Counted from the first letter of the stretch, positions 1-20,673 are shown. The stretch is 64,000 nucleotides of DNA from Ardenticatenaceae bacterium (GCA_030065875.1 JASJCR010000052.1:2347-66346); one strand, 5' to 3'. Translations and numbers: made by a program. The notes: a model not told the origin generated them from the letters alone.

Positions 1-447
1 CACGATGTGACCAAACATGGCGATAAAGCGGCGGTAGGCGTCGAGGGCGAAGCGGCGGCTGCCGCTGATTTTGGCCAGCCCTTCAACCGTTTCGTCGTTG
101 AGGCCCAAATTGAGCACCGTGTCCATCATGCCCGGCATCGAAATCGCCGCGCCGGAGCGAACCGAAACCAGCAGGGGATCATCGACGTTGCCAAAGGTTT
201 TGCCGGCCGCTTTTTCCACTTCTTTTAGGGCCGCCTGCGTCTGGCTCCACATCCCTTCCGGGAATTGCCCATCATATTCCAAATACCCCAGACACGCCTC
301 GGTGGTGATGGTGAATCCCGGCGGAACCGGCAGACCAGCGTGCCGCATCTCGGCCACGTTGGCTCCTTTTCCACCCAGGAGATTTTTCATTGTGGCGTGG
401 CCATCCTGAAATAAGTAAACCCATTTGTGATCGCGATTTTGGAACAT
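1..447 (-). CDS. ppdK: Pyruvate, phosphate dikinase, N-terminal fragment (continues beyond the left edge)
   Basis: Minus-strand reading from the ATG at 445-447 gives [52 protein letters not shown]...[19 protein letters not shown], the conserved PPDK N-terminus. It is absent from the ORF track because no stop lies in the window. Confidence 0.85.
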
Positions 448-641
448 CGTATTCTCCTACCGATACAAAAATGCTGAACAAATTATCGTTGATAGCCTTC
501 CACCCCTGGGTGAAAAGTGTCAGGTTGACGGTCTTGGTGAGAGAGGGAACGTGGTATGATTGAGCCGAACGCAATCGTTTCGCGACCGTTTGCCGGACAC
601 ATCGCGAACATTATACACAAAATAAACGGGCTCGTGAAAAA

Positions 642-1379
642 ATGCACAAAGTTGAACCATCAACTTCTTTAAAGATTCTTTATTTGGATGAGCATCTGGC
701 GGCCGTCTACAAACCGGCCGGTTTGCTGGTTCACCGCACCGATATTGCCAGGGGGCAGGATGAGCGTTTTGCCCTGCAGATGGTACGCGATCAGCTGGGG
801 CAGCCGGTGTATCCGGCCCATCGCCTCGATCGCAAAACGGCCGGTATTTTGCTGTTTGCGCTCGACAGCGAGACGATGAGCCGGCTCAAGCCGCTGTTTG
901 ACGAGCAGCGGGTCAAAAAGAAGTATTTGGCTCTGGTGCGCGGGCACGCGCCTGAAGAGGGGGAAATTGACCGGCCGCTCAAAAAGGCGTTTTTAAGCGG
1001 GGCGCAGAAGGCGGCGGCCGTGGCCAAACCGGCCGTGACCCGCTATAGGCGGCTGGAAACGGTTGAACTGCCGATCCCGGCCGGGCCGTATCCGACCGCC
1101 CGCTATTCTTTAATTGAAGTGGCGCCGTTGACCGGCCGGACCCATCAAATCCGGCGTCATCTGGCTTCGATTTCTCATCCGATTGTAGGGGATACCCGCT
1201 ACGGGGACAGCGCTCACAACCGCCTGTTTCGCCGGGAATTTGACAGCTATCGCATGTTTTTGATCGCCCATTATCTGTCTTTTCCCCATCCACACGAAGA
1301 GAAACAGGTGAGTGTGGCTGTCGAGCCCGACGAGGATTGCCGCGCGATCTGGCGGCGTGTGGGGATCGATCGGATGTAA
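642..1379 (+). CDS. RluA-family pseudouridine synthase (TruC/RluA-like)
   Basis: 245-aa ORF with the catalytic-Asp motif HRLDRKTAGILLFA and the RTHQIRRHL motif typical of RluA-family synthases. Confidence 0.85.
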   Translation: MHKVEPSTSLKILYLDEHLAAVYKPAGLLVHRTDIARGQDERFALQMVRDQLGQPVYPAHRLDRKTAGILLFALDSETMSRLKPLFDEQRVKKKYLALVRGHAPEEGEIDRPLKKAFLSGAQKAAAVAKPAVTRYRRLETVELPIPAGPYPTARYSLIEVAPLTGRTHQIRRHLASISHPIVGDTRYGDSAHNRLFRREFDSYRMFLIAHYLSFPHPHEEKQVSVAVEPDEDCRAIWRRVGIDRM

Positions 1380-1581
1380 GGTGGTTCAGGGGGGTACAGG
1401 TCTTCAATGGCAACTGTCCTTGCCGCGTTCAAGCTGTGGACAAAGCGTAGAAGTGGCTAGGGTGAAACCAGAGCCTTGTTGTAAGGGCTTGGCTAGCCAA
1501 GCCCCTACCAATGTCTAACTGCCTCCTGACACGGGTGGGGAATTTGTTGAGCTAAAAAAAATAACTTTTGGTTGGTGATAT

Positions 1582-1610
1582 TTCAATCCATCTGGGCTAT
1601 CTGCTATAAT
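1582..1610 (+). promoter_or_regulatory. Candidate sigma70-type promoter of the Asp23-yloV pair
   Basis: TTCAAT (1582-1587), 17 nt spacer, TATAAT (1605-1610), about 25 nt upstream of the 1636 start. Match by eye only. Confidence 0.35.
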
Positions 1611-1635
1611 CGTGCTCCAGCGGCAAGCAGATTGA

Positions 1636-2007
1636 ATGAAGGAGATGTGCATGCCTGAAGAAGAAAACCGATATGGAGAGATCGAAATCTCATCAACAGC
1701 GGTGGCCTCGGTCGCCAGCCAGGCGGTTGACCAATGTTACGGCGTTGTGGGGATGGCCAGCAAAGGTTTTGTGGACGGCATCGCCCAACTTTTGACCCGC
1801 GATCCCCATCGGGGCATTGATGTCCAAATGCATGATGATGGGATCCAGGTTGACGTCTATGTGATTGTCGAGTATGGCATTCGCATTCGTGCGGTGGCGG
1901 AGAGTATCCAGAATACGGTTCAATTTCACGTGGTCCAGGCCACCGGCCGGCCGGTTAAGGCGGTCAATGTGTTTGTCCAGGGTCTGCTCCATACTCCGGA
2001 CCAATAA
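1636..2007 (+). CDS. Asp23/Gls24-family (alkaline shock) protein
   Basis: 123-aa ORF. YGEIEISSTAVASVASQAVDQCYGVVGM is the typical Asp23-family N-terminus. It sits directly upstream of a DAK2/YloV gene, a conserved pairing. Confidence 0.85.
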   Translation: MKEMCMPEEENRYGEIEISSTAVASVASQAVDQCYGVVGMASKGFVDGIAQLLTRDPHRGIDVQMHDDGIQVDVYVIVEYGIRIRAVAESIQNTVQFHVVQATGRPVKAVNVFVQGLLHTPDQ

Positions 2008-2046
2008 TTTGACACGCTAAGATTTGTGTTGGGCGAAAGATTGGGA

Positions 2047-2103
2047 TCAATAACTAATAACCAATACTCAATAATCAATGGCCAATTATCAATTATCAAT
2101 GGC
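2047..2103. repeat. Heptanucleotide tandem array (CAATNNN units)
   Basis: caataac taataac caatact caataat caatggc caattat caattat caatggc: eight consecutive 7-nt units in the Asp23-yloV spacer. Confidence 0.8.
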
Positions 2104-2129
2104 CCAACACCCATGAAGAGGTTATCCAT

Positions 2130-3824
2130 TTGACTAAAATATCCGGCGCCCCATGGCACACTTGTAATGGCCTCACGTATAAGAAGCTGGTGCAGGCTGG
2201 TTTATATGTGCTCGAGCAAAACCACCACACCGTCAACGCCCTGAACGTCTTTCCCGTTCCGGATGGCGATACCGGCACCAACATGCTGTTGACGATGCGC
2301 TCCGCGTGGCGGGCGATCAAGGATGCGGACGAATCCCACGTAGGGGCGGTGGCACAGGCATTTTCGCGGGGGGCGCTAATGGGTGCCAGGGGGAATTCCG
2401 GGGTGATTTTGAGCCAGATTTGGCGGGGAATCGGCCGTTCACTGGCTGAAAAAGAGGCGTTTGAAGCGGATGATTTGGCGGATGCCCTGCAGGCGGCCGT
2501 CGAAACCGCTTACGGGGGGGTGATGAAGCCGGTTGAAGGGACCATTTTGACCGTCATTCGCGAGGGGGCGGCTGAGGCGGTTGATGCGGCCGACAAGAGT
2601 GACGACATCCGCTTTGTGCTGCGGCGCACGCTAACTCGTTCACGCCAGTCGTTGGAGCGCACCCCCGAGCTGCTGCCGATCCTCAAACAGGCCGGCGTGG
2701 TTGATTCCGGCGGGATGGGTTTGGTTTTTATTTTGGAAGGGATGTACAAGCTGGCCACCGGCGAACTGGAAGGAATCGACGAAGCGGCCGGGTCGACCTT
2801 CGAGGCGCAGGTTGCTTCTTTACCGGCCCAGGCGCACGCGGTGCCGGAGGGTGGCGTCCTTGAAAATCATTACGACGTGCAGTTCATTTTGATGGGCGAA
2901 AATTTAAATGTCGAAGTGGTGCGCAATACGATAGACGCCATGGGGGATTCAACGGTGGTCGTGGGGGATGAAACGACGATCAAGGTGCACGTCCACGTCG
3001 ACAATCCAGGTGAGCCGCTTTCATATGGGATCAGCCTGGGGGAGATCACCGACGTGGTGGTTGAGAATATGCAGATGCAGATGGAGGAGATCGTAACGGC
3101 CGGTGCTCCGCCGGCCGCGCCATCGGCTCAGGAGCTGGCCCAGAAGATCCAGATCGAGCCCGGGCAAATCGCCGTTGTCACGGTAGCGCCGGGGTCCGGG
3201 TTTGAGACGCTGTTTCAGGATTTGGGGGCCTCAGGGATCGTGCCGGGTGGGCAGACTAACAATCCCAGCACCGAAGAGCTGTTTGCGGCGATCGAGGCGG
3301 TAGACACCGACAAGGTGATTTTGCTGCCCAACAACAAAAATATCATTTTGGCCAGCGAGGCGGCCCGCGATTTGGCTGATAAAAAGCAGGTCGTGGTGGT
3401 GCCCACGCGCACCGTCCCACAGGGGATCGCGGCGATGCTGGCCTTGGACCCGGCCGGCGAGATCGAGGCGGTGGGTGAGGCGATGATGGCCATGGCGGCC
3501 GATGTGGTGACGGTGCAGGTGACCGTGGCCACCCGTTCGGTGCAGCTCAACGGGGTAGCGGTGGCTGAAGGGGATATTATCGGTCTGGTAGATGGGGAGA
3601 TTGTGGCGTCCGGGCAGAATATCGTGGCGGTTTTAAAAGAGGCGATGGCGGCCGTTGAGGATATTGACGAGCGGGAGATCGTGTCGCTATTTTACGGGGA
3701 GGACACCACTGCGGACGAGGCGCAAAAAACGGCCGAGACGATTGAAGAGTGGTATGAGGAGCTTGAGGTGGAGGTCCAGCCGGGTGGTCAGGCGCATTAT
3801 TTCTACATTTTGGGGGTGGAGTAG
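2130..3824 (+). CDS. DAK2 domain fusion protein YloV
   Basis: 564-aa ORF (TTG start in the track). It has the N-terminal Dak2 motif PVPDGDTGTNM and a long C-terminal YloV-type half, and it follows Asp23. Confidence 0.9.
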   Translation: MTKISGAPWHTCNGLTYKKLVQAGLYVLEQNHHTVNALNVFPVPDGDTGTNMLLTMRSAWRAIKDADESHVGAVAQAFSRGALMGARGNSGVILSQIWRGIGRSLAEKEAFEADDLADALQAAVETAYGGVMKPVEGTILTVIREGAAEAVDAADKSDDIRFVLRRTLTRSRQSLERTPELLPILKQAGVVDSGGMGLVFILEGMYKLATGELEGIDEAAGSTFEAQVASLPAQAHAVPEGGVLENHYDVQFILMGENLNVEVVRNTIDAMGDSTVVVGDETTIKVHVHVDNPGEPLSYGISLGEITDVVVENMQMQMEEIVTAGAPPAAPSAQELAQKIQIEPGQIAVVTVAPGSGFETLFQDLGASGIVPGGQTNNPSTEELFAAIEAVDTDKVILLPNNKNIILASEAARDLADKKQVVVVPTRTVPQGIAAMLALDPAGEIEAVGEAMMAMAADVVTVQVTVATRSVQLNGVAVAEGDIIGLVDGEIVASGQNIVAVLKEAMAAVEDIDEREIVSLFYGEDTTADEAQKTAETIEEWYEELEVEVQPGGQAHYFYILGVE

Positions 3825-4122
3825 CCGGGCCGGTCTTTTTCGAACTTGCTCCTTGACTGAGGGACACCATTGTTAGGGGCCGCTGAAGGTCGTGAGTGGG
3901 TCTTTTTTTGAGGAAGCTAGGGCTGAATGACTCTGGACCAGGGTCGCATTTCCCATATAATGTCCGTAATGGACTTGCATTGGGTTCCACCCTACATCAT
4001 TATCAATGTGGCTTAAAACCCATATCTTTTCTCCTGGTGTGGCTTGACTTTGTTCAACATGGATTTTGCGTCGACACAGCAACGCAAGAATCCTTTTTCG
4101 TTACAAAGGAAAAGAACGCAGC

Positions 4123-4623
4123 ATGAAATACTACATAATTACTTGCTTACTATTCTCGTTCTGCCTGATTTCGTGCGGTGGTGGTTCCGAGACAAATGAA
4201 ACCGATACCATTGACGGAACAGATGATTCAGAAACCCAATCTTCTGTGGATTTCAGCCACCTCAATTCCAATAAGTTTATTTTGGTTGTCGATCAAATTG
4301 CCGAATCTCCCAATATTGATGTGCAGGGCCCAGGCGAACCCGTTCCAGAATCCGAATATGTTGAGTCCATCGCAGGTACCGAATATGAAATCGAATTTTC
4401 AGAAGATCGGAATCGTGTTGTAATTGGTTCAGAGCCGATAATTGGCGACCTCGAGACAGAAGAAGACAATTTGATTAGGTATCAACTCTCTACCGGACTG
4501 TTTGCAGGCGGTCGATTCCTAGTTCGGATAGAAAATGACCAGTTTGAGGCAGAGTTGACCGAGTACGGATCTGGTTTGCCAATTGTGAGGAGTGAAAAAG
4601 GAATTTTAGAGCCAGTCGATTAG
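4123..4623 (+). CDS. Hypothetical lipoprotein
   Basis: The internal ATG at 4123 gives MKYYIITCLLFSFCLISCGGGS, a signal peptide plus lipobox Cys. The rest of the sequence is acidic and low in complexity. An attC-like site follows 24 nt after the stop. Confidence 0.65.
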   Translation: MKYYIITCLLFSFCLISCGGGSETNETDTIDGTDDSETQSSVDFSHLNSNKFILVVDQIAESPNIDVQGPGEPVPESEYVESIAGTEYEIEFSEDRNRVVIGSEPIIGDLETEEDNLIRYQLSTGLFAGGRFLVRIENDQFEAELTEYGSGLPIVRSEKGILEPVD

Positions 4624-4646
4624 CAAATTGAACTAATCGATGACGA

Positions 4647-4718
4647 GCGTAACAAAAAATTGCAGGCGACCACATGGCGTCTGCACCGCCATACGGCACC
4701 TGAATTTTAACGTTAGGA
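4647..4718 (+). repeat. attC-like site j
   Basis: GCGTAAC...GTTAGGA. The arms cgtaacaaaaaattgcagg / cctgaattttaacgttagg and catggcg / cgccata pair into a 72-nt imperfect hairpin. Confidence 0.6.
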
Positions 4719-4795
4719 CGGCTTATGCAAAGTTGCGTTTTGCCGAACATGAAAAATCTTTGTAATTGAAGATAGTTCTACAAACCAAAACTCTG

Positions 4796-4844
4796 CCCTA
4801 ACAAGCTTGCATCTGACCTATGGCAGGTGAAGCGGGCGTTGGGG
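4796..4844 (+). repeat. attC-like site k (short)
   Basis: CCCTAAC-aa-gcttgc...gcgggc-GTTGGGG. The R boxes are complementary. At 49 nt it is shorter than classical attC sites. Confidence 0.45.
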
Positions 4845-4888
4845 CGGCTTATCCAGCATTCCATCAACCCTAACGCCCAAAGCGCCGA

Positions 4889-4950
4889 CCCCAACGCAGC
4901 ATCAAGCCGACAAAAACTGCACACAGATTTTGCGGCTTATGCAACTAAAC
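4889..4950 (+). repeat. attC-like site a (degenerate 3' box)
   Basis: CCCCAAC-gca-GCATCAAGCCGACAAAAACTG-caca-CAGATTTTGCGGCTTATGC-aactaaac. It forms a long stem with one extra C in the left arm. The GTTRRRY box is not intact. Confidence 0.45.
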
Positions 4951-4995
4951 GATCACACATAGAGAAAACACTTCGCGGATCACATTTGTTTTTGC

Positions 4996-6147
4996 TTATG
5001 TTGCAGATGCTGAATTGAGTATAAGGGATAGGGCATTGGTAAGGTGTTGGAGAGGCTCGCTGGACGCCCTGTAAAGAACATAGTAGCTGTCACGTTCTGC
5101 GCCTATCCAGCCTACGCGTTGCATCAGTTTCAATTGCTTTGAGATTGCACTTTCACTTAGACCAATAATCCGCGCTAATTCCATCGTGGAGCACGGCTTT
5201 TGCGCGACCAATTCCAAAATTTGAAGTCGAGTAGGGTCTGCTACACCACGAAGGATATTGAGTAGCTGATCTGAGGGAACGGGCGGCTTGCCTGCCAGCC
5301 GGTGTTGTGGCATCGGATATGTGATGGAAAGGGTAAGAGGTTCGGCTGGCGACCGATTTTTGATGAAAAAGATGAGCGAAGGATACGTGTAGTAGGAAGG
5401 ATAAAGATTGAGATTATCAATCTGCCTAAACGTGCATTCTTCTATAACATTCGGTTTGAAGTAGGTGGCTATTTGTTGAGCAATATCGACCGAAAATCGC
5501 TCACTCAAACCTGCCAGCATTGGTACACTCCCCGAACGCTGGAGCTCATGACCTCGCACCCTAATTTCCTCCAATATGATTGATTCAATCCCTTGCCATT
5601 CATACTCGAAAAAAGTGCTCCAATACCTTCTAAGCAACTGTAGAAAACGTTGCTGGAGTTGCTCCGGTTCGTATGCGAGCAAAGGTAAAAGCGTATCATC
5701 ATCACCATACCACATTTTTAGATAGCCCGAGACCTTTTGCTGGATCGAATCAGACTCTCGAAATTCGGTGAGGCTGACTAGCTGTTTCAAAGGACGTTGC
5801 CCATTAGGAGGGGCATTGATCAGGCAATCGTTGACAAGAACCTCCGCAAAATGTTCTGAATGCATTGATTCAAGAGCAGAAATTTCTCGTTCAAACGCTG
5901 GCTCTTCTACTTGTTCAGATGCAACGAGAAATCTGGCGGCAGTTGCAATAACTGGTCGCAATGTACGCAATTCAGAGCGGAGTTCGGCCGAAATCTTCTG
6001 TCTTGTCGATAATGCCCATGAGATGTGAAGCGGATGGTTTTTATGATTGCTCAGCACGTTCAAGCTCAGTAACAACTCTCTGATAATCGAGTAGCCAAAG
6101 CCGATGTTTTCCTCTGGGAGCTGAGCTAAGTTGAGTTTGATTGCCAT
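4996..6147 (-). CDS. ArsR-family winged-helix regulator with a large N-terminal domain
   Basis: C-terminal HTH: LNILRGVADPTRLQILELVAQKPCSTMELARIIGLSESAISKQLKLMQRVGWI. The start is uncertain: the track ORF runs to 6282 and would overlap the divergent DinB gene, and ATGs at 6201 and 6147 are alternatives. Confidence 0.7.
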   Translation of the reverse strand: MAIKLNLAQLPEENIGFGYSIIRELLLSLNVLSNHKNHPLHISWALSTRQKISAELRSELRTLRPVIATAARFLVASEQVEEPAFEREISALESMHSEHFAEVLVNDCLINAPPNGQRPLKQLVSLTEFRESDSIQQKVSGYLKMWYGDDDTLLPLLAYEPEQLQQRFLQLLRRYWSTFFEYEWQGIESIILEEIRVRGHELQRSGSVPMLAGLSERFSVDIAQQIATYFKPNVIEECTFRQIDNLNLYPSYYTYPSLIFFIKNRSPAEPLTLSITYPMPQHRLAGKPPVPSDQLLNILRGVADPTRLQILELVAQKPCSTMELARIIGLSESAISKQLKLMQRVGWIGAERDSYYVLYRASSEPLQHLTNALSLILNSASAT

Positions 6148-6235
6148 TTGATTGAGTGATTGGGAAATTAGTTGATTGCTCGCTACAGCGTAGTTTATCA
6201 TTTTCACTGTAGCAATCAAGCTAATCAGGAATGAT

Positions 6236-6751
6236 ATGGGGCGAAAAATGGCGCATAGAATTGTTGAAAATCTTTGGTTCACACGTGAAAAATGGTTGAG
6301 TGGTTACGCAGACATTTCGGCCGAAGATGCAGTCAAGCGCATCGGTGACGCCAACAGTGTCAGTTGGATGGTCGGCCATCTTGCTTGTTTTGAACAATTT
6401 ACCTGGTGCCAATTGGCACAGGGCATTACGGTTGTTGAAGAACTCCGTGTTTACGACTTTGGTCAGCCTGCAACAACACCTGCATTAAATGAGGTGCTAG
6501 AAATGTGGCACAAAGTAATGCCCGTTGCCGATCAATATCTTGAAACATTGACAACTGCAGATATGTCAACCCATCTGGTGCTCCCAAACGGCGCAAAGTT
6601 TCGGGACGACATTGGCACGACTATCCTGCGCCACACGTGGCACTATTGGTATCACCTGGGAGAAATGCGAGCATTACGCTCAGGGATGCAGCACAAAAAT
6701 ATGCCGCAATTTGTGGGTAATATGGCTGGTTATGGCCAATATAGTCGTTGA
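6236..6751 (+). CDS. DinB-family protein
   Basis: 171-aa ORF with His-rich four-helix-bundle motifs (WMVGHLACFEQ, HTWHYWYHLGEMR) typical of the DinB superfamily. Confidence 0.75.
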   Translation: MGRKMAHRIVENLWFTREKWLSGYADISAEDAVKRIGDANSVSWMVGHLACFEQFTWCQLAQGITVVEELRVYDFGQPATTPALNEVLEMWHKVMPVADQYLETLTTADMSTHLVLPNGAKFRDDIGTTILRHTWHYWYHLGEMRALRSGMQHKNMPQFVGNMAGYGQYSR

Positions 6752-6788
6752 CAACACCTTTCACTAATGGCAAGACAAGCAACACAAC

Positions 6789-7361
6789 ATGATTGAGACA
6801 CGGCACGTCACTACAGAACGCTTAGATGATTTAGCCGATTTGTTTTGCACAAATCGTTACACCGAAAAATGCTGGTGCATGTGGCATATTATTTCAGTCA
6901 AAGCGTTTCATGCGGGTGGCTCTGCTGGAAACCGGGCAAAATTGGCAGAAATTGCACAAACAGAAGATTTGCCAGTTGGCATTTTAGCATACCAAGATGG
7001 CGAGCCAATTGGTTGGTGTGCTGTTGGCCCTCGTGAACGGTATAAACGAGCACTTACGACACCATCCTACAAAATTGATTTTAAAGAATCGTATCAAAAC
7101 GTGTGGCTCGTACCGTGCTTTCTTTCTCGTTCTGACAAAAGGGGGATGGGCTTAAGCAGGCTTCTGCTTGAGGCAGCAGTTCAATTGGCACAAGAGCACA
7201 AGGCTGAGGCTATCGACGGTTTTCCTTTTGCTTCTGGGAAACGCCGCTCAAGCAGTCAAATCCATGTTGGCTTTGAATCAACTTTCGTTGCATGTGGGTT
7301 TGCCCCGATTAGCAGACCATCTGGTAGCCGTGTTATTATGCGTCGTGTGATACTGAGATAA
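6789..7361 (+). CDS. GNAT-family N-acetyltransferase
   Basis: 190-aa ORF. The RGMGLSRLLLEAAVQLAQEH segment matches the acetyl-CoA binding motif A (R/Q-x-x-G-x-G/A). An attC-like site follows 17 nt after the stop. Confidence 0.7.
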   Translation: MIETRHVTTERLDDLADLFCTNRYTEKCWCMWHIISVKAFHAGGSAGNRAKLAEIAQTEDLPVGILAYQDGEPIGWCAVGPRERYKRALTTPSYKIDFKESYQNVWLVPCFLSRSDKRGMGLSRLLLEAAVQLAQEHKAEAIDGFPFASGKRRSSSQIHVGFESTFVACGFAPISRPSGSRVIMRRVILR

Positions 7362-7377
7362 TCAGGTGTCAATCGCC

Positions 7378-7439
7378 GCCCAACAAAGCATCAAGCCAAC
7401 AAAACTGCTCGCAGATTTTGCGGCTTATGCAAGTAAGCA
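7378..7439 (+). repeat. attC-like site b
   Basis: GCCCAAC-aaa-GCATCAAGCC...GGCTTATGC-aa-GTAAGCA. The left arm has one extra C relative to the right arm. The 3' box is GTAAGC, one T short of GTTRRRY. Confidence 0.5.
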
Positions 7440-7572
7440 AGCTGAGATGTGATAGAGTTGGGTAGAGACGTTTGTACGATTGTTTTAACGGAAACCACAA
7501 TGGAGAATAACGCTATTTATCATCCAATAGATAGACGAAAGTATGATACGTGTTCACCGGAAGGAGATATCG

Positions 7573-8072
7573 ATGAATGAATTTGTGCGTGTTGACCAAC
7601 CAGGAGACCAGGACGAACGCAATTTGCTGCCTGGCTAGTTGGCATTTCATCGAAATGCATTGGAAGCTAAGTGTATTGGACTTAGCTCAGAGCAGCTTGT
7701 CACAAGAGCGATGCCACCGTCAACGTTGTCTTTGCCTGGGTTGATTCGACACTTAACCGAGATGGAGCGAGCGTATCTGGTTTGGGTGCTTGGTTCTGGC
7801 GAACCTCTTGAGTGGGTTTGGGGAGAATATGCGGTCCAGATTGGGATTTCGAAGCTGATGCTTCCATGGTATCCGAGTCAATGACAGCCTAGGCAAAAGA
7901 GCAACAGGCCGTAAATAGTTTGAGTTTAGGCTATGAGTCTCTTGAACAACGGGGGACAGGAAATGGACATTTGCTTCGATGGAATCTTATGAAACTTATT
8001 CAGGAGTATGTGCGACATAACGGACATGCTGACCTTCTTCGAGAGCGCATTGACGGGCAAGTGGGCGAATAG
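7573..8072 (+). pseudogene. DinB/DUF664-family gene remnant
   Basis: The family-like sequence is ERNLLPG*LAFHRNALEAKCIGLSSEQLVTRAMPPSTLSLPGLIRHLTEMERAY ... [28 protein letters not shown]. It is interrupted by in-frame TAGs at 7636 and 7890 and by a frameshift near 7838. Confidence 0.7.
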
Positions 8073-8103
8073 TGTTGTCAACTCGGACATCATGCACCGT
8101 GCC

Positions 8104-8155
8104 GCCCAACAATGCTTCCAACCGACGAAGGGCGCGGCTGAAGCAGGGGTTAGGC
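8104..8155 (+). repeat. attC-like site c
   Basis: GCCCAAC-aat-GCTTCCAACCG-acgaagggcg-CGGCTGAAGC-aggg-GTTAGGC. Both R boxes are canonical and the left arm carries an extra C. Confidence 0.65.
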
Positions 8156-8224
8156 AGCTGTTTGAAAAAGTGGTGGGTTTTCAAGCTGGATTCTAGAGAT
8201 TCTGTCAATCAAGGAGGATACACT

Positions 8225-9073
8225 ATGTCAGATAGAGAACTTCGCGTTTTTGATGGAGCCACGGCGATTATCACCGGTGGTGCATCTGGAATTGGCCGAG
8301 CGCTTGGTGGAGAATTGGCCAAGCGTGGCAGCGAGGTTGTGCTGGCCGATCTTCAGATCGAACTGGCTGAAGAAGTGGCCTCAGGAATCCGTGATGCTGG
8401 CGGTAAGGCAACGGCACTGAAACTAGATGTGACCGATTTCTCTGCCGTGGAGAGCTTGCTTCGAGAAGTAGTTGAGCGTACTGGTGGCTTGGACTTTATG
8501 TTCAACAATGCAGGAATCACCATTGCTGGCCCTATCCGTCTTCATGCTATTGAGGATTGGAATCGGATCATCGATGTCAATCTCCGAGGCGTGGTAAACG
8601 GAGTTCAAGCGGCATACCAGATTATGTTGGACCAGGGGTTCGGGCACATTGTGAATACAGCCTCTACGGGTGGACTTGTGCCTAATGTAATAAGCCCCTC
8701 GTACACGACGACTAAGTATGCTGTAATTGGTCTTTCACGGGTTCTCCGTGCTGAAGCAGCAGCGGAAGGCATCCGGGTCAGTGTTCTCTGTCCGGGTTTT
8801 GTTCGTACTCCTATGCTAGAAGGAGGAAAATACGGTAAAACCCTTATGGATCTATCTCCTGAACAAGAACGGGAACTTCGCGATAGCTTTGAGAAGCTCA
8901 AACCTATGCCTCCCGACACTTTTGCAGGAAAAGCACTGGACGCGATCGCGAAAAACAAAGCCATTATCGTAGAACCGTCTTGGTGGAAGCTACTCTGGTG
9001 GATCGACCGCCTGTCTCCGCAATTGACGATGCTTCAGCTCCGGAAGCAAGTTATGGAAATGAACAAGGGCTAG
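8225..9073 (+). CDS. SDR-family oxidoreductase
   Basis: Start taken at MSDRELRVF. It has TGGASGIGRAL (TGxxxGxG), NNAG and YTTTK (YxxxK). The longer track ORF (8072) would read through attC site c. Confidence 0.85.
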   Translation: MSDRELRVFDGATAIITGGASGIGRALGGELAKRGSEVVLADLQIELAEEVASGIRDAGGKATALKLDVTDFSAVESLLREVVERTGGLDFMFNNAGITIAGPIRLHAIEDWNRIIDVNLRGVVNGVQAAYQIMLDQGFGHIVNTASTGGLVPNVISPSYTTTKYAVIGLSRVLRAEAAAEGIRVSVLCPGFVRTPMLEGGKYGKTLMDLSPEQERELRDSFEKLKPMPPDTFAGKALDAIAKNKAIIVEPSWWKLLWWIDRLSPQLTMLQLRKQVMEMNKG

Positions 9074-9125
9074 GATTCTTGTGGCGTCATGATGGCAACA
9101 CCTCCTTCACTGCAGAGAAAGAGCG

Positions 9126-9185
9126 GCCTAACCCAGCATCAACCTGATTTACGCATGGCCGGATTTTGGATGAATATCCAACTTC
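9126..9185 (+). repeat. attC-like site d (degenerate)
   Basis: GCCTAAC-cca-GCATCAACC...GGATTTTGGATGAATATCC. It is related to sites a and b but has a poor right arm. Confidence 0.3.
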
Positions 9186-9274
9186 GCTGGGATCTTTATC
9201 ATGCTTAGAAATCTGAGGAGTGGGAACTAAAGACGATGGAATCATTCTCAAATTCATCCAATACCCCTCTAGCT

Positions 9275-9326
9275 GCATAACATCGCTTCCAACCGGCGCG
9301 AAGCGCGGCTAAAGCAGGCGTTAAGC
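9275..9326 (+). repeat. attC-like site e
   Basis: GCATAAC-atc-GCTTCCAACCGGCGC-gaa-GCGCGGCTAAAGC-aggc-GTTAAGC. Confidence 0.6.
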
Positions 9327-9521
9327 CTACAACACGAGTATATTCCACCCATTACAGACGCACGGCCACCGATTGATATTCATTAATTATTCGAATGTTC
9401 TGAATCGCTTCTAGCCTAAGGCACAAGCATTGCATTATACAGAGCACGTGGTTAAAGTGGACACATCACTTCGTAGTTACCCCGGATCTGTGACCCCGAA
9501 TGATCGGTCCTTCTCTGCGAG

Positions 9522-10844
9522 TTAATACCAAGTTAGCTTTCGCATCACACTTTCTACGCCACTAACCACTTTTGATAATTGTGAATTTGGAATTGCGGGA
9601 CCAATTGCAAAGCGTTTTTTATTTGCTTGGTCAATAAAGTTTTCTCGTGCGGCAAGGCGGGCGCGTCCTACAAGGTCTTTCCATATCGGTACACGGCTTT
9701 TAGCATATGGTTTGGCGATGATTTCTTTAAAGTGGGTTCGGATATCGTCTGGGTTTGGATATTTTTCAAGCGCGTTTGCAATCTGTTTACCCACCAATTC
9801 AGCATCTTCAATGGCTAAGCTTGCACCCATCCCAATCGTCGGCAGAATCGCATGTGCAGCATCTCCTATTAGAAGAAGGTTACAATTCTCAGGGGAGGGG
9901 TTCAATAAAGGATCTGTATCTTTCATTCGCCACAAGTAAATCTTGTAACTATCCCAATCATCTACATGGTCTAATGCTTCTAGGTATGTGGAATCATGAG
10001 GGCAAGCGTCTTCAACCAGCGAAGCCGCAATGTTACGTTTTGTGAAGGCCGGTATTTCAGCCCATTTTTCATCATTCTGAAGGTTGTTTTGGGCCCAAAG
10101 CGCTTGTTTTGTGTGATGGTCAAAGCCAATACCATAAGCTAAACGATTTTTACCCAATGGAAAGAGCGTTAAAGTGGATTTGGTCCCCATGATAAGCTGG
10201 CTGGTTCCACCATTGGATAAATTCAGAAAACGTTCAGAGGCATCCAGAGGATTTTTGGGCTCGACCAGCATATACATGCAAGAGAAGCCCTGATCAATTT
10301 TTTCAGCAGATTCTGGGTAAAACAAACGACGAGCGGTGGAAAATGAGCCATCACAGGCAATAAAGATATCGAAGATAAATTGATCACGCTTGTTTACGTG
10401 ATCAATTGTCTCGACTTGAACGGAACCATCTGCTAAGGCCGCAATGTCGACGACTTTATGTTGCATCTTGACTGTCGTTGTAGATATTAAATCTGAAAGA
10501 TCGCTTAAAAACTCTTGTCTGACCACGCAGCGAGTATATTCCGGATTGCTATTGATTGGTTGGAACCGGCGATTTAGTCTGCTGTTGTAGAACTCAATTG
10601 TATGGGCGCGAACGCCTCTATGTAGCGCTCGCTCCTTAATGCCTATTCGTTCTAAGGCACGACAGGCTCTTTCTTGAATACCATACTCCACGCCAGGGTA
10701 ATCATAAGGTGTCTCGTTTTTATCAAACAGGATAATGTCGAAATCAACATTTGGTGCATAAGCTTCAAGGGCCAATGCAGTGGTCAGACCGGCCGGGCCT
10801 GCTCCAACAATGCCTATTTTGACAGCTTTTTTATCTTGTTTCAT
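9522..10844 (-). CDS. FAD-dependent monooxygenase
   Basis: 440-aa ORF with the N-terminal GIVGAGPAGLTTALAL (GxGxxG) and the GDAAHAILPTIGMGASLAIEDA motif of flavoprotein aromatic hydroxylases. Confidence 0.85.
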   Translation of the reverse strand: MKQDKKAVKIGIVGAGPAGLTTALALEAYAPNVDFDIILFDKNETPYDYPGVEYGIQERACRALERIGIKERALHRGVRAHTIEFYNSRLNRRFQPINSNPEYTRCVVRQEFLSDLSDLISTTTVKMQHKVVDIAALADGSVQVETIDHVNKRDQFIFDIFIACDGSFSTARRLFYPESAEKIDQGFSCMYMLVEPKNPLDASERFLNLSNGGTSQLIMGTKSTLTLFPLGKNRLAYGIGFDHHTKQALWAQNNLQNDEKWAEIPAFTKRNIAASLVEDACPHDSTYLEALDHVDDWDSYKIYLWRMKDTDPLLNPSPENCNLLLIGDAAHAILPTIGMGASLAIEDAELVGKQIANALEKYPNPDDIRTHFKEIIAKPYAKSRVPIWKDLVGRARLAARENFIDQANKKRFAIGPAIPNSQLSKVVSGVESVMRKLTWY

Positions 10845-10885
10845 CCACTTATTTTCCTTATGACCGATAATTGTATTTTGTTCTG

Positions 10886-11356
10886 TTATGAGAGAGCCGG
10901 TTTTGAACCACGTAATTTGTCCAGCAGGTAATTTAACTGTTTGGCTTCATTTGCTGTTAAGTTTTTTCTGAGGCGGGTATAACTTTCTAACTTCTCATCC
11001 ATTAGCCTAAGCGTTCTGAGCCCCTTTGCACTCAAAGTAATATCAACCATGCGGCGATTATCGGAGTTTGTTTGCCTTTCAATCAGCCCCAGCTTGTACA
11101 GCTTGTCGAGGAGGCGGGTCATATCACCCCGTTTATTGAGCAGCAGCTCTTTAATCACACCCACCTGCATTGGATTAGGATGATGAATCTCAATAACTTT
11201 CAAAATATTGTAATGTTGGTCGTTAATGTTGAACGGTTTTAGCGTGTGCTGCATGATGCTGAACAACACGTTGTGGGTATGAAGCAAATTGACAATCGCT
11301 CGTTCTTGTTCGTCTTTGAAAGGCTTTGCTAACAGAATTTCGTGTTCTATGCTCAT
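10886..11356 (-). CDS. MarR-family transcriptional regulator
   Basis: Start taken at MSIEHEILL. The winged-helix region is QVGVIKELLLNKRGDMTRLLDKLYKLGLIERQTNSDNRRMVDITLSAKG. The longer track ORF (to 11440) would cover the operator. Confidence 0.8.
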   Translation of the reverse strand: MSIEHEILLAKPFKDEQERAIVNLLHTHNVLFSIMQHTLKPFNINDQHYNILKVIEIHHPNPMQVGVIKELLLNKRGDMTRLLDKLYKLGLIERQTNSDNRRMVDITLSAKGLRTLRLMDEKLESYTRLRKNLTANEAKQLNYLLDKLRGSKPALS

Positions 11357-11383
11357 AAGTGATCTGATTATGGGGCAAAATGC

Positions 11384-11408
11384 TGTAATTACAAAATATG
11401 TAATTACA
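11384..11408. promoter_or_regulatory. Candidate MarR operator (two palindromic 10-mers)
   Basis: TGTAATTACA-aaata-TGTAATTACA, 28 nt upstream of the MarR start. Each 10-mer is a perfect palindrome. Confidence 0.55.
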
Positions 11409-11477
11409 GATATACTATCTTTGATCGTACTCAATGTCAACCCTCAGGGATTGAGCCCCTCTCAGCGCAATCAGGCC

Positions 11478-11527
11478 GCCTCATGGCTTCCAGCCGACGC
11501 GAAGCGCGGTTGAAGCGGCCGTTCAGT
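11478..11527 (+). repeat. attC-like site f
   Basis: GCCTCAT-g-GCTTCCAGCCGACGC-gaa-GCGCGGTTGAAGC-ggcc-GTTCAGT. It has the same architecture as sites c and e, but its R boxes are weaker. Confidence 0.5.
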
Positions 11528-11636
11528 GGTTTAACTCACCATGTTAAATTATTGAAAACCTGCAAATTAAGCAGATCAACGGCGGACAATTCAAATCATG
11601 CAAAATGAGAGAAGAAGGTTACCGTATCTACGCTGG

Positions 11637-12026
11637 TCAGAAATTGTTGCTAGGAGACAGTTTCATTTCTGGTTTTCTGAAGTACCACGATACGACAATA
11701 AAAATAGTTTGCATAAGCGGAGCAGAAGCCTCAACGATCTGACCACTCGCCAAATGTGAAAAAACAGCCCCTGTCATAGCGAAAAACAATCCAGCATATG
11801 CCCACTCTTTCACCAGTTTATAACCAGGAATCAAGATCACGATAACACCAAGAATCTTCCACATGCCTATGATGTACAAGAAGTATTGTGGGTAGCCTAG
11901 CGGGATGATTAAGTCAACCATCCCTTGTAATTGGAGTAAGGCTGCTGCACCACTTCCAAATTGACCAAAGACCATTAGCAGTGTGGCAACCCAATAGATT
12001 ATGTGATTCCATCTTTGTTTGTTCAT
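11637..12026 (-). CDS. DoxX-like family membrane protein
   Basis: 129-aa, four-TM ORF with GYPQYFLYIIGMWKILGVIVILIPGYKLVKEWAYAG, typical of DoxX-like proteins. Confidence 0.75.
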   Translation of the reverse strand: MNKQRWNHIIYWVATLLMVFGQFGSGAAALLQLQGMVDLIIPLGYPQYFLYIIGMWKILGVIVILIPGYKLVKEWAYAGLFFAMTGAVFSHLASGQIVEASAPLMQTIFIVVSWYFRKPEMKLSPSNNF

Positions 12027-12071
12027 GTTTCTCTCCGTGTGATGTAGCTGGCTGGCAACAGGGAAGTAGAC

Positions 12072-12563
12072 TTACGCCGCCAAAAACTCACCCAGCTTAT
12101 CTAGCTGCTGCTTGTAGCCCCACCGCATGCCAAAGGCTGCCATTTGCGCACCGAGCCCAGTTTTGATGATCGTAACCCTTAGATTCAAGGTCGTTTTTCC
12201 ATTTTCGCCTGTCAATGTCAGTTCGTTAATCTGATCAATAGTAGAAGTATCTTTTTCACCCTCAGTCCATGCCTGAGCGTTGTATGTTAATTTTGATGGC
12301 GCTTCAATCACGGTGAAGGTGCCCTCCATCGGCCAGCGCGTCCCCTTGTATTTGCCCATCGCATCTCCAGCCTCAACAACGATGTAGATTCTTCCGCCCA
12401 CACGTAGGTCAATCTCACATTCTGAAACAATGGTATCTTTTGCTCCCCACCACTGCTTCACGAGTGTAGGATCCGTCCATGCGTTCCAAACTCTATCGAT
12501 TGGTGCGTCATAAGTGCGCTCGAAACGCACCTCTTTTTTCTTGCGAAACAGGTTCAAAAACAT
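12072..12563 (-). CDS. SRPBCC (AHSA1/START-like) domain protein
   Basis: 163-aa ORF. FERTYDAPIDRVWNAWTDPTLVKQWWG is the characteristic start of Aha1-like SRPBCC proteins. Confidence 0.8.
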   Translation of the reverse strand: MFLNLFRKKKEVRFERTYDAPIDRVWNAWTDPTLVKQWWGAKDTIVSECEIDLRVGGRIYIVVEAGDAMGKYKGTRWPMEGTFTVIEAPSKLTYNAQAWTEGEKDTSTIDQINELTLTGENGKTTLNLRVTIIKTGLGAQMAAFGMRWGYKQQLDKLGEFLAA

Positions 12564-12582
12564 GATGCTTGTCTTGAGAAAA

Positions 12583-12954
12583 CTAGTTGTTGATAACCGC
12601 CTTACTCACTATTTCAGCGATTTTTTCTTCGGTTGCTTTGTCGAGGTCTGTAAAAAACCATGCATGTGGCATCAGTTGATCAGTCGCCTCTTCTTCAAGG
12701 GTGAAGTTCGCCTTTTCGGAAAGACCAAACGTCATATAGTCATCTTTGCGAAAATAGCAGAGGACCGGCCGGCTCTTCGACAAGGCGTACCCAGGCATGC
12801 CATACCACAATCTGGGTTTGAGCGCTGGCACGCTCTTTGTGATGACTTCATGAAGACGCATACCCATGGTGCGATACGGCTCTGGCATTTCGGCGATCTT
12901 TGCGAGGACGGCTTCCTCGTCGTTTGCCTTACTTGCTACCCTTTTCTTACTCAT
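12583..12954 (-). CDS. DUF1801 (YdhG-like) domain protein
   Basis: Start taken at MSKKRVASK. The PALKPRLWYGMPGYA motif and the gene's position beside ArsR and SRPBCC genes are both typical. Confidence 0.7.
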   Translation of the reverse strand: MSKKRVASKANDEEAVLAKIAEMPEPYRTMGMRLHEVITKSVPALKPRLWYGMPGYALSKSRPVLCYFRKDDYMTFGLSEKANFTLEEEATDQLMPHAWFFTDLDKATEEKIAEIVSKAVINN

Positions 12955-12964
12955 AGTAAATACC

Positions 12965-13273
12965 TCAATCATCAGCTGAACTTAAAAATGAATCTAGGGA
13001 ATCAAGTCGTTGTTCCCAAAGTTGAATAATTTGGGTTGCCCACACCTCAACCTCAGCAATGCCCTCAGGATTAATCTGATAAATGCGCTGCTGGCCCCGC
13101 CTTTCGACCAGCACCAGATTTGCATCCAGAAGCACTTTTAGATGTTGGGAAATAGCAGAAGCCGTAATCGTAAAATGCCTGCTAATCTCTGTCGCGGTCA
13201 AACGGCCATTTCTAGCCAACGTTTCCACAATGGTGAGCCTTGCCGGTACAGCAAGGGCAGAAAATGCGTTCAT
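12965..13273 (-). CDS. ArsR/SmtB-family transcriptional regulator
   Basis: 102-aa ORF with ALAVPARLTIVETLARNGRLTATEISRHFTITASAISQHLKVLLDANLV. It is the first gene of a four-gene minus-strand unit. Confidence 0.85.
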   Translation of the reverse strand: MNAFSALAVPARLTIVETLARNGRLTATEISRHFTITASAISQHLKVLLDANLVLVERRGQQRIYQINPEGIAEVEVWATQIIQLWEQRLDSLDSFLSSADD

Positions 13274-13490
13274 AGTTAACCTAACGGGCAGTCTGGTTTT
13301 GGTGAAGTTCCCCCTATTAGGATTTCACAATGTCAATGCATTCTAAAATGCCCTGCCTACAATCCGTAATGGGTTCTAATTCACCTTAACTACCACGCAG
13401 CTATTATAAAGCACGCGCTTAATTAAGTCAACACTAAATTAACTGCACTCCCTTACACATGGAAAATAGCCCAGGGGCTCGATTATCGAA

Positions 13491-13543
13491 CCCCAACAAA
13501 GCTGGCAGTCAACGTGAAGTGCGGCTCACGCAGGCGGTTGGCC
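13491..13543 (+). repeat. attC-like site g
   Basis: CCCCAAC-aaa-GCTGGCAGTC...GCGGCTCACGC-aggcg-GTTGGCC. Confidence 0.5.
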
Positions 13544-15312: not shown

Positions 15313-15852
15313 ATGAAAAGAGTATTTGACATAATCATCTCAACTGTTTTATTGGTTGCCTCGTTACCGATGATGGTGATCATTGCAATCGGGATTAAAT
15401 TTGATTCGCCAGGAGTGATCTTTGTAGGGTCAAAGCGAATGGGTCGGCATGGTAAACCCTTTAGTTATTTTCGTTTTCGTACAATGGGAGGCGAGCCATT
15501 AAGAAGGACGCGTTTCGGCCGATTGATAGGAAATTTATCGCTGGATGATATTCCAACGCTGTGGAATGTTCTGCGTGGCGATATGAGTTTAATTGGTCCT
15601 CGACCCGAGTTGGTTGAAAAGGTGGATTTAACAGATCCGGATTGGCAAAAAGTGCTTTCGGTGAAACCCGGTCTCTCCGGTCCTGCACTTCTTACATTGA
15701 GGGAGCGATATAATCAAACAACAGTGAAGGAGCGCATACAACCGGATATAAAATACGCAGAGAATAGCTCATTGACGTACGATATCCGACTGCTGTTCGA
15801 GACACTATACTGGTGGATTCGTAACCGAGGGCATATTAAAGGTCGTTTTTAA
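15313..15852 (+). CDS. Small monotopic phosphoglycosyl (sugar) transferase, PglC/WbaP C-terminal type
   Basis: 179-aa ORF with one N-terminal hydrophobic hairpin, KFDSPGVIF, FRFRTM and LDDIPTLWNVLRGDMSLIGPRP. Confidence 0.8.
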   Translation: MKRVFDIIISTVLLVASLPMMVIIAIGIKFDSPGVIFVGSKRMGRHGKPFSYFRFRTMGGEPLRRTRFGRLIGNLSLDDIPTLWNVLRGDMSLIGPRPELVEKVDLTDPDWQKVLSVKPGLSGPALLTLRERYNQTTVKERIQPDIKYAENSSLTYDIRLLFETLYWWIRNRGHIKGRF

Positions 15853-15885
15853 CGCTCAAACGGCAATCAGAATGAGCACGGCATC

Positions 15886-16107
15886 ATGGTTCTGAGCACC
15901 CTCTTGGGTATAGCATTTGGTTGGCTGTTCTGGAAACTGGGAATTGAGTGGGCGATCTTCGCCCATTTTGCCTATGATGCCATCGTTAGTGCAGGGTTAC
16001 TAAAAGTTTATCTATTGGCTAACCCGCTGGTTTGGGCCGGATTCCTCACGGTCTTGGTTCTAGCTTCCTGGATGGCCTGGTGGACAATAAACCGGATAGT
16101 TAACTAA
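15886..16107 (+). pseudogene. CPBP-family intramembrane protease, C-terminal remnant
   Basis: The ORF is only 73 aa. It keeps the last CPBP motif (IEWAIFAHFAYDAIV) but lacks the N-terminal EExxxR motif region. Its last codons lie inside a dispersed repeat copy. Confidence 0.45.
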
Positions 16108-16154
16108 AAGTGATTTATTGCGTTTTGGTCCCTTTGGCCTATTCATCGGGAAGG
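16091..16154. repeat. Partial copy of the 29717-29869 element
   Basis: aaccggat...gatttattgcgttttggtccctttggcctattcatcgggaagg matches 29771-29846, apart from a deletion in the ccgatgaat hairpin. Confidence 0.7.
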
Positions 16155-16235
16155 CAATCGGGGGCGTATGTCAAATACACATCTGCATATAAAATAGATA
16201 GCGACTATGAAAGCAGTTCGGGTTGGAGATAACTC

Positions 16236-17060: not shown

Positions 17061-17133
17061 TGGCCTCATATTCGCCTGACCACGCTTACGTCCGATGCGG
17101 CGTGCTGGATTTTATTAAAATTTTTAACCCAAA

Positions 17134-18276: not shown

Positions 18277-18331
18277 AATAGCAGCCGAGCCATCAATTTG
18301 ACGTCCTTACCTTTCCTTTAGTCAGCTAATT

Positions 18332-20620: not shown

Positions 20621-20673
20621 CTGCGGCATGGCTGATTGTGAATAGCGATTCACTTAAAGAAGGAAGCTGAATA

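Follow-up and report, generated by a model that had tools for sequence, protein, structure and literature searches.

A probable integron cassette array without a nearby integrase, partly decayed, in an uncultured Ardenticatenaceae genome

Background

A 64,000-nucleotide stretch of DNA from an Ardenticatenaceae bacterium (GCA_030065875.1 JASJCR010000052.1:2347-66346), referred to here as the window, carries an AT-rich island just downstream of the housekeeping gene fakA. The island contains a series of imperfect palindromes. A preliminary description, made from the sequence alone, took these palindromes for the attC sites of an integron cassette array that lacks an integrase. Arrays of this kind are known as clusters of attC sites lacking an integrase (CALINs); the definition asks for two or more attC sites no further than 4 kb apart and for the absence of an integrase (PMC4889954). 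CALINs are frequent, as a survey of 2,484 genomes found 279 of them, 95% without a neighbouring intI pseudogene (PMC4889954). The origins proposed for CALINs are loss of intI, rearrangement, and insertion of cassettes at secondary genomic sites (bioRxiv 10.1101/2022.09.11.507474).

The preliminary description also placed the array in a lineage where integrons are poorly documented. This side claim is weaker, as Chloroflexi/Chloroflexota are already among the phyla reported to have integrons (PMC4889954; PMC8618304), and the lineage argument therefore adds little novelty. Here we describe the attC sites, the boundaries and the cargo of the array, and we weigh the explanations of how the locus arose.

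The locus and its setting

The host is an uncultured member of the Anaerolineae (Chloroflexota). Proteins identical to those of the window carry the NCBI label 'MAG: Ardenticatenaceae bacterium', where MAG stands for metagenome-assembled genome. Relatives of FakA from genome collections, with identities of at most 66-69%, place the host in the Ardenticatenaceae/Promineifilaceae group. To the left of the array lie genes for an RluA-type pseudouridine synthase, Asp23 and the FakA/DAK2 kinase (Pfam), the last two being the Asp23-yloV neighbours named earlier. The drop in GC content that had been noted is also seen in the window profile, which falls from 0.55-0.59 before 4 kb to 0.40-0.51 over 4-21 kb. 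The small genes of the island encode an orphan lipoprotein-like protein, DinB_2, GNAT, SDR, MarR, ArsR, DoxX, SRPBCC and other proteins. No tRNA genes were found in the window.

The 5' end of the array abuts fakA. A GTTAGGG box (3869-3875, plus strand), 45 nt past the fakA stop and at the GC drop, is a possible and plausible left junction of the array, judging from the sequence and the GC profile. In the closest relative, L019 (FakA 66% identical), counterparts of window 1-3824 are followed by approximately 380 bp and then by counterparts of 43776 onward, so that fakA runs straight to the ABC transporter found at 43.8 kb in the window. Because the stretch from 3.8 to 43.7 kb is wholly missing in L019, the island is an insertion relative to the closest relative, and the gene order is not one that relatives share. 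The fakA-ABC transporter intergenic DNA of L019, when aligned with the window, is too diverged to map the island junctions.

All nine palindromes of the preliminary description are present, beginning at 4647, 4796, 4889, 7378, 8104, 9126, 9275, 11478 and 13491. As attC sites they are not equal. Five (4647, 4796, 8104, 9275 and 11478) are supported by covariance models, and the other four (4889, 7378, 9126 and 13491) are degenerate. Plus-strand open reading frames (ORFs) stop 16-52 nt ahead of the sites.

Covariance model searches

The first covariance model, R1, was built from 17 class 1 integron attC sites only and serves as a proxy for the attC model of IntegronFinder. The class 1 integrons were located in plasmid records with the IntI1 protein (14 loci used), and the seed sites lie directly 3' of annotated cassette genes (aadA1/2/5, aadB, cmlA1, blaVIM-2, aac(6')-Ib, arr-3, dfrA5/12/27, estX, psp, qacL, gcuF and others). 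The consensus fold of the seed has an R stem of 4-5 bp and an L stem of 9 bp with a one-base bulge. A regular-expression and folding scan for RYYYAAC...GTTRRRY hairpins was used only for locating the true class 1 sites of the seed. It was dropped as a detector because it gave many false positives inside genes of known integron loci.

R1 was run on the full window and both strands (128 kb of search space) with filters off. The top three matches, all on the plus strand, are 4647-4718 (24.3 bits, E 0.001), 8104-8155 (24.0 bits, E 0.0013) and 9275-9326 (21.4 bits, E 0.0058). The sites at 4796, 11478, 4889 and 7378 score in the 10-11 bit range (11.4 bits for 4796 and 9.9 for 7378), and the best match elsewhere in the window reaches 12.7 bits. 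IntegronFinder itself keeps attC sites with E <= 1. Rfam gave no match at the gathering threshold or at E <= 1, which is uninformative since Rfam appears to hold no attC family.

Two controls were made with R1. Over 994 kb around fakA in 63 related Chloroflexota genomes (default filters) there were two matches with E <= 10, the better of which scored 18.5 bits. When the filters were off and the search covered 94 kb of the closest relatives, R1 scored at most 12.4 bits. These low scores indicate that the palindromes are not a background feature of such genomes. The scatter that would betray ordinary repetitive extragenic palindromic (REP) elements is seen neither elsewhere in the window nor in the fakA regions of relatives.

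The core of sites 8104, 9275 and 11478 together with the GTT box was also used as a pattern on metagenome contigs, where it found 109 stretches. From these, 80 loci (413 kb) contain 147 R1 matches with E <= 1, many of 30-48 bits and the best of 48.7 bits. The contigs found in this way hold several attC matches each, on one strand and at a spacing of 0.6-1 kb, which is the classical layout of a cassette array. In two of them the array is headed by IntI-like N-terminal fragments, oriented divergently. The second covariance model, R2, was built from 114 of the R1 matches at these metagenome loci and thus represents environmental cassette arrays.

In the window R2 matches five sites with E < 0.01. 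The scores are 39.9 bits at 8104, 36.2 at 9275, 28.9 at 4647, 24.7 at 11483-11520 (L boxes only) and 22.9 at 4796 (E 0.005). Lower matches are found at 4900 (13.5 bits) and 7378 (9.6 bits), nothing else in the window exceeds 11.4 bits, and the maximum in relatives is 14.8 bits. The model-supported sites all lie on the plus strand, and 8104 scores 39.9 bits on that strand versus 10.3 bits on the other, so that the single polarity noticed at the outset is upheld. A covariance search of the kind that had been proposed as a check has returned significant matches, three with R1 and five with R2. The independent evidence comes from R1, and the main use of R2 is to rank the sites and to reveal their polarity.

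Structure of the attC sites

The rule of inverted R'' (RYYYAAC) and R' (GTTRRRY) boxes holds strictly or nearly at 8104, 9275, 4647 and 4796. It fails at 4889 and 7378 through the R' box, at 11478 through the R'' box and at 9126 for want of a 3' half. One extra base is found at the same position of the L'' arm in seven sites. It is a C in 8104, 9275, 11478, 4889 and 7378, which bears out the extra C claimed earlier for five sites, and a G in 4647 and 4796. The position matches the bulge column of the class 1 alignment, and an extra G also occurs in the true sites of cmlA1 and VIM-2. Bottom-strand folds predicted with DNA energy parameters have the textbook shape for 4647, 8104 and 9275, in which a closing R stem leads through an unpaired spacer to an L stem from which a single base bulges.

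The four complete-looking sites are all on the plus strand. Site A (4647-4718, 72 nt) has the boxes GCGTAAC and GTTAGGA, and its predicted bottom-strand fold has -15.8 kcal/mol (z -4.3). Site B (4796-4844, 49 nt, CCCTAAC ... GTTGGGG) closes a cassette without an ORF and is 91% identical to the attC at 7715-7765 of a related array, L118, which is described below. Site E (8104-8155, 52 nt) is canonical and reads GCCCAAC aat GCTTCCAACCG ... CGGCTGAAGC aggg GTTAGGC; the bulged base in its bottom-strand fold is a G. Site G (9275-9326, 52 nt) has the boxes GCATAAC and GTTAAGC.

Site H (11476-11529, plus strand) retains the L boxes and an R' box, GTTCAGT, and has lost the R'' box (GCCTCAT). The R2 match to this site is local, covering model positions 9-54. 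The site is 86.5% identical to the L118 attC at 1982-2034, which follows a HigB/HigA cassette. Together with 8104 and 9275 it forms a family, type 1, from which a sequence-only profile was made (nhmmer). This profile finds site I (13492-13543, plus strand; E 9.4e-5), which has no R1 or R2 match and a fold that is not attC-like. It is counted as a decayed copy because it is a significant sequence homologue of the family. The profile also finds the decayed 3' half of a type 1 site, J (18828-18865, plus strand; E 9e-4), which ends in GTTTGGC and was absent from the preliminary description.

A second family, type 2, consists of two degenerate sister copies on the plus strand (76-77 bits with nhmmer). 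Site C (4879-4951, the palindrome at 4889) has the R'' box CCCCAAC, an intact L stem (GCATCAAGCCG/CGGCTTATGC) and a defective R' box (CTAAACG). Its stem folds with -17.8 kcal/mol (z -6.2), and the R2 match covers the L boxes only. Site D (7371-7446, the palindrome at 7378) reads GCCCAAC ... GTAAGCA; its L stem is likewise intact and its R' box is short of one T. Among the other loci examined, only assemblies of the same population contain the type 2 core (GCATCAAGCC...GGCTTATGC). Site F (9119-9148, plus strand, GCCTAAC cca GCATCAACC; the palindrome at 9126) is a 5' half only. It matches neither R1 nor R2 and has a weak nhmmer match to type 2 (E 0.55).

Search for an integrase

The earlier statement that the window has no tyrosine recombinase ORF is confirmed. 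With IntI1 as the query, tblastn over the 64-kb window gave a best E of 1.3, and Pfam found no tyrosine recombinase, Phage_integrase or transposase family in any of the sizeable window ORFs. The parts of a complete integron (intI, an adjacent attI and a cassette promoter) were not found in the window, with no dedicated intI_Cterm profile search for an intI pseudogene. A 349-aa ORF (21221-22270), considered because of its size and position, encodes an alpha/beta hydrolase. Another candidate, a 323-aa ORF (57186-58157), has no family and no similarity to IntI.

An intI-like ORF is present on another contig, L108 (401-739, minus strand). It matches IntI1 over the first ~50 residues only and then diverges, and looks like a disrupted integrase. 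It adjoins a 164-aa ORF, which is followed by an attC with the type 1 core of the window.

The boundary of the SDR cassette

The gene for the SDR oxidoreductase (8225-9073, plus strand; Pfam) lies in a module that has copies elsewhere. The homologous cassette body extends from 8149/8150 to about 9101 of the window. Copies with 82-93% DNA identity are found in L189-L192, L194 and L196, on contigs of 46-63% GC and with unrelated upstream flanks. In four contexts (L189, L190/L191, L194 and L196) the homology starts exactly at window 8149/8150, which is the G|TTAGGC of attC 8104. The sequences at the boundary are AGGGG|TTAGGC, CAATCG|TTAGGC, GACAGTG|TTAGGC and GAAGCA|TTAGGC, with upstream flanks that are all different. 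This breakpoint is the one that would be expected from an integrase crossover between G and TT, and it lends indirect support to recombination of the folded bottom strand, for which the predicted folds are the other indication. In L196 an attC of 29.5 bits lies two genes upstream of the SDR copy.

The closest SDR copies (L189 1-20849; L190 and L191) lie in runs of 19-25 co-oriented small genes, a layout like that of a cassette array. The genes of these runs include DUF4386, DUF6326, zinc alcohol dehydrogenases, Acyl_transf_3 and Rce1-like proteins. Neither R1 nor R2 finds an attC in the runs, and the spacers hold no regular shared motif.

A related array and strain variants

L118 comes from the metagenome assembly JAAUYD01, which also holds L197, a strain variant of the window locus with 98.9% identity. 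It has five plus-strand attC sites (R2 25-52 bits) that are 83-91% identical to window 4796, 9275 and 11478. The cargo consists of a HigB-like toxin with a helix-turn-helix (HTH) antitoxin, a lone HTH antitoxin, DUF6429, MORN and GNAT proteins, and is typical for chromosomal integrons.

The comparison with L118 bears on half site F. Over window 9157-9323, a block that takes in attC G, the identity to L118 354-520 is 87%; this part of L118 holds the 3' end of a 108-aa HTH_3 gene together with the attC that belongs to it. The window therefore holds the 3' remnant of a HigA-like HTH antitoxin gene (9157-9274, plus strand), which has lost its 5' two-thirds relative to L118 and is interrupted by a premature TAG. 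Because this truncated cassette directly follows the half site, the palindrome at 9126 can be explained as a deletion scar. It would be the remnant of the SDR cassette's own attC, fused to the next cassette by deletion.

Three other assemblies, L078, L079 and L197, contain the interior of the array with an identity of 98.9-100%. In L197 the site at 9275 has two substitutions, one in the R'' AAC triplet (AAC to AAT) and one in the L' box, which lower the R2 score from 36.2 to 23.8 bits. The window and L197 also differ in a local manner, as 39 of the 57 differences cluster in ~680 bp (12019-12698) in the SRPBCC and DUF1801 genes. Divergence there is ~5.7% versus ~0.4% elsewhere, which suggests a local recombination tract.

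Cassette genes and cargo

The cargo named in the preliminary description (a lipoprotein, DinB, GNAT, SDR, a decayed DUF664 gene and small regulators) was recovered. The cassette layout of one ORF with a close attC is seen for the lipoprotein-like gene (site 4647), the DUF664 pseudogene (8104) and the higA-like remnant (9275). The first gene (4123-4623, plus strand) encodes a 166-aa orphan with a lipoprotein-like N-terminus and stops 23 nt before attC 4647. It has no Pfam, NCBIfam or PADLOC family and only 3 relatives among 5.8 billion proteins. The pseudogene (7560-8073, plus strand) is a DinB/DUF664 gene, mycothiol S-transferase-like, with a Pfam MST match to a fragment; its translation has an in-frame stop and a frameshift. 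With the SDR gene and the antitoxin remnant, these two make up the plus-strand single-gene units.

The larger units, at 4.9-7.4, 9.3-11.5 and 11.5-13.5 kb, combine a regulator with enzymes, and two of the three are reverse-oriented. The first contains a gene for a DUF5937 and ArsR-type HTH regulator (4996-6147, minus strand; Pfam, NCBIfam and a gene call in L078), divergent from a DinB_2 family gene (6236-6751, plus strand; Pfam) and a gene for a GNAT-like acetyltransferase (6789-7361, plus strand; weak Pfam match). The GNAT gene stops 16 nt before the palindrome at 7378, and its protein is identical in two other assemblies of the same population. The second unit is an operon of a MarR regulator and a FAD-dependent monooxygenase (9522-11357, minus strand; Pfam, NCBIfam, gene calls in L197 and sequence). 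The third is an operon of ArsR, DUF1801, SRPBCC/AHSA1 and DoxX (11637-13273, minus strand; Pfam).

Further to the right lies an AT-rich run of co-oriented small genes (15313-21147, plus strand; GC 0.40-0.50; Pfam), with one attC remnant inside. It encodes a sugar transferase, a CAAX protease fragment, two nucleotidyltransferase-like proteins, ABM, UPF0158-like, SDR, a methyltransferase and DinB_2. These genes are probably former cassettes with eroded attC sites. The two nucleotidyltransferase-like neighbours lie at 16236-17060 and 17134-17814; one matches Polbeta/NTP_transf_2 and DUF4037 and the other has a weak Aminoglyc_resit match. Neither has an NCBIfam or PADLOC match, and a role in aminoglycoside modification is unsupported.

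Most of the cargo consists of regulators and enzymes of the detoxification type, and several of these genes are pseudogenised or truncated. The suggestion that cassettes of unknown function are candidates for adaptive or defence roles is weakened, as PADLOC gave no defence-system match for the cassette proteins. Its Csa3 match to the ArsR-type regulator was rejected as similarity of the HTH domain only. NCBIfam likewise gave no specific resistance family for the cassette proteins.

Interpretation and alternatives

We conclude, with a probability of roughly 0.85, that the locus is a chromosomal integron cassette array with no integrase nearby, a CALIN, which is partly decayed and belongs to an Ardenticatenaceae genome. 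The model matches, the SDR boundary and the sister array L118 all support the CALIN-like reading first proposed for the palindromes. Sites 4647, 4796, 8104, 9275 and 11478 follow one another with gaps of at most 3.4 kb, within the 4 kb of the CALIN definition. The array starts just downstream of fakA and reaches at least 18.9 kb, and probably about 21 kb. The decayed sites at 13492 and 18828 carry it to at least 18.87 kb, so that it is longer than the 3872-13543 given earlier, and it is also more degraded.

Approximately 10 sites are recognisable and they thin out rightwards. About four look complete, 11478 is without its R'' box, and five are degenerate or half sites. One cassette gene is pseudogenised and one is truncated. 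The degenerate sites, the pseudogene, the truncated cassette and the AAC mutation in L197 together indicate that the array is eroding and that selection for recombination does not appear to maintain its sites.

On the basis of what is known of integrons, an integrase of this type would have recombined the folded bottom strand of each cassette attC with a target site. Crossover between the G and TT of the GTTRRRY box would have fixed where each cassette begins and ends. Strand choice would depend on the one base that bulges from the L'' arm, which would explain why all sites share one polarity. The larger reverse-oriented units (MarR, ArsR and DUF5937-ArsR) are probably self-expressed from their own promoters, since each has its own regulator, and this would explain their survival in an array without an integron promoter. 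If an integrase were supplied in trans, units that lie between intact sites could still be excised, such as 8156-9326, which carries the SDR gene.

Several points weigh against this conclusion. R1 is only a proxy for IntegronFinder's own model, and its E-values for single sites are no better than ~1e-3. The use of R2 is circular in part, since a pattern derived from the window served to pick its source loci. A textbook cassette carries its attC along, and the SDR copies share no downstream attC, their homology stopping at the stop codon or 28 nt after; none was detected in L189-L193 with the attC models. The atypical 'cassettes' of 2-2.5 kb, with several genes and in part reverse-oriented, could be later insertions. 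An integrase may lie outside the 64 kb, and the L078 scaffold has a run of N across the fakA-array junction.

The alternative that fares best, which we regard as possible though not favoured, is that the locus belongs, as a detached or distal segment, to a complete chromosomal integron with its intI elsewhere in the genome, the integrase either still serving the array in trans or having been split from it by rearrangement. The homogeneous attC families (8104/9275/11478 and 4889/7378) and the 83-91% identity with L118 from JAAUYD01 fit lineage-specific chromosomal integrons, and about half of CALINs are found in replicons or genomes that encode IntI (Cury et al., PMC4889954). Against a detached part, the 5' end abuts fakA with no attI or intI, and no integrase was found on either side of the array, over 3.8 kb leftwards and 45 kb rightwards. 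The many degenerate sites and the L197 mutation at 9275 also speak against selection that still favours recombination.

An assembly or binning chimera, in which an array from another organism was joined to Ardenticatenaceae core genes, is improbable. The GC drop at the junction is sharp, and the gap of 100 N in L078 covers window 3233-4040 and so spans the junction. However, the flanks on both sides are syntenic with L019, the scaffolding of L078 still links Asp23/fakA to the array, and the array interior recurs nearly unchanged in the three other assemblies. Least credible of all is that the palindromes are REP-type elements or terminators that resemble attC by chance: they are indeed short GC-rich imperfect hairpins just after stop codons, with non-attC hairpins in the same island (20,555-20,625) and R1 E-values of the modest size given above, but no T-run follows them and no terminator-like call was made for any of them, they occur on a single strand of a single island with none in the other 45-50 kb of the window or ~1 Mb of relatives, they have the AAC/GTT boxes and a bulged base at the canonical position, they have close homologues in classical arrays beside IntI fragments, and the SDR homology breaks exactly at G|TT.

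A more specific history can also be sketched, which is speculative and on the unlikely side as a whole. The array would be a fossil fragment of a still-active, lineage-specific Ardenticatenaceae/Promineifilaceae integron with unusually short attC families (~50 nt), common to other arrays of the same community such as L118. Cassettes such as the SDR unit would move between distant genomes, and some copies would land without a recognisable attC by secondary-site (attG-type) insertion.

Comparison with known systems

Like the CALINs described in 2016 with IntegronFinder, the array has at least 2 attC sites within 4 kb in one orientation and no integrase nearby. Its cassettes are likewise mostly unrelated to those of clinical integrons and hold no resistance genes. 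As in 95% of CALINs (PMC4889954), no recognisable intI pseudogene lies next to it. The array is more degraded than the definition requires, as its half sites, the missing R'' box of 11478, the pseudogene and the truncated cassette show. It also differs in its short attC sites of 49-52 nt and in the reverse-oriented multigene units of 2-2.5 kb with their own regulators.

Sedentary chromosomal integrons, such as the Vibrio superintegron with its VCR repeats and those of Xanthomonas, resemble the locus in being chromosomal, in their near-identical attC families and orphan cassette genes, and in toxin-antitoxin content (here the higA-like remnant, and HigBA in L118). Unlike them, the window is without intI, attI and a cassette promoter, and half of its ~10 recognisable sites are decayed. 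Sedentary integrons are recognised by > 19 attC sites or by conservation in a lineage. The present count is well below this number, and the array is absent at the locus in the 63 related genomes. Near-identical strains do carry it; the closest relative is without the array, which gives no support for conservation in the lineage.

The class 1 attC sites (aadA type, 60 nt) are similar in architecture and in sequence (GCCCAACAAT-GCTTCCAACCGACG...GCGGCTGAAGC-AGGGGTTAGGC versus GTCTAACAATTCGTTCAAGCCGACG...GCGGCTTAACTCAAGCGTTAGAT), with the bulged base at the same position. The window sites differ by a shorter central loop and by the absence of resistance cargo, Tn402/Tn21 context and IntI1.

The locus can also be compared with the SALIN/attG insertions (Loot et al., bioRxiv 10.1101/2022.09.11.507474), in which chromosomal cassettes likewise lie away from attI. 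The array would begin at a site with GTT immediately 3' of a housekeeping gene, and the SDR copies elsewhere start at TTAGGC and have no recognisable attC. In contrast to SALIN/attG insertions, the window holds a multi-site array rather than a single cassette. Secondary-site insertion of the window array itself is a supposition, because the original target sequence cannot be reconstructed.

The locus reveals no new mechanism, and its cargo gives no sign of defence or resistance functions. It adds a well-documented integrase-less array from an uncultured filamentous Chloroflexota lineage, whose integron biology is known almost exclusively from automated genome scans. Decay in progress is on record here as well: attC sites reduced to halves, an R'' box gone, a toxin-antitoxin cassette truncated and, between strains, mutations in invariant attC bases. 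The boundary of the SDR module at G|TT in several contexts, with some copies lacking an attC, bears on the origin of CALINs and of isolated cassettes. The most useful leads are this sharp boundary in attC-less copies and the ~50-nt attC families common to arrays in a Chloroflexota-rich community.

Other features of the island

A non-coding element of ~85 nt (window 4020-4103) with the hairpin TTGCGTCG...CGACGCAA lies just upstream of the lipoprotein gene. It is 80% identical to L118 5993-6076, which lies upstream of an unrelated plus-strand ORF without a family, and has no Rfam match. The element may be a 5' leader or promoter module shared by cassettes. A scan for promoters and terminators gave counts at or below shuffled expectation. 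In the promoter region of the MarR-monooxygenase operon, a tandem palindrome (TGTAATTACA x2, window 11370-11400) looks like a putative MarR operator. Two adjacent GC-rich hairpins at 20555-20625 (GTCATTCCCGCTTTCGCGGGAATC and GGATCCCCGCCTACGCGGGGATGAC) are REP-like and not attC-like.

Relative to L019, approximately 40 kb are extra between fakA and the ABC transporter (window 3830-43770), and only the first ~17 kb have a cassette-like look. The rest, 21-43 kb, has a GC content of 0.50-0.62. It holds several large ORFs without a family, one of them of 1155 aa (36351-39818). Also encoded there are a P450, a beta-helix protein, cytochrome b561, two MarR regulators, GrpB, TspO, hydrolases, a beta-propeller protein and a multihaem cytochrome.

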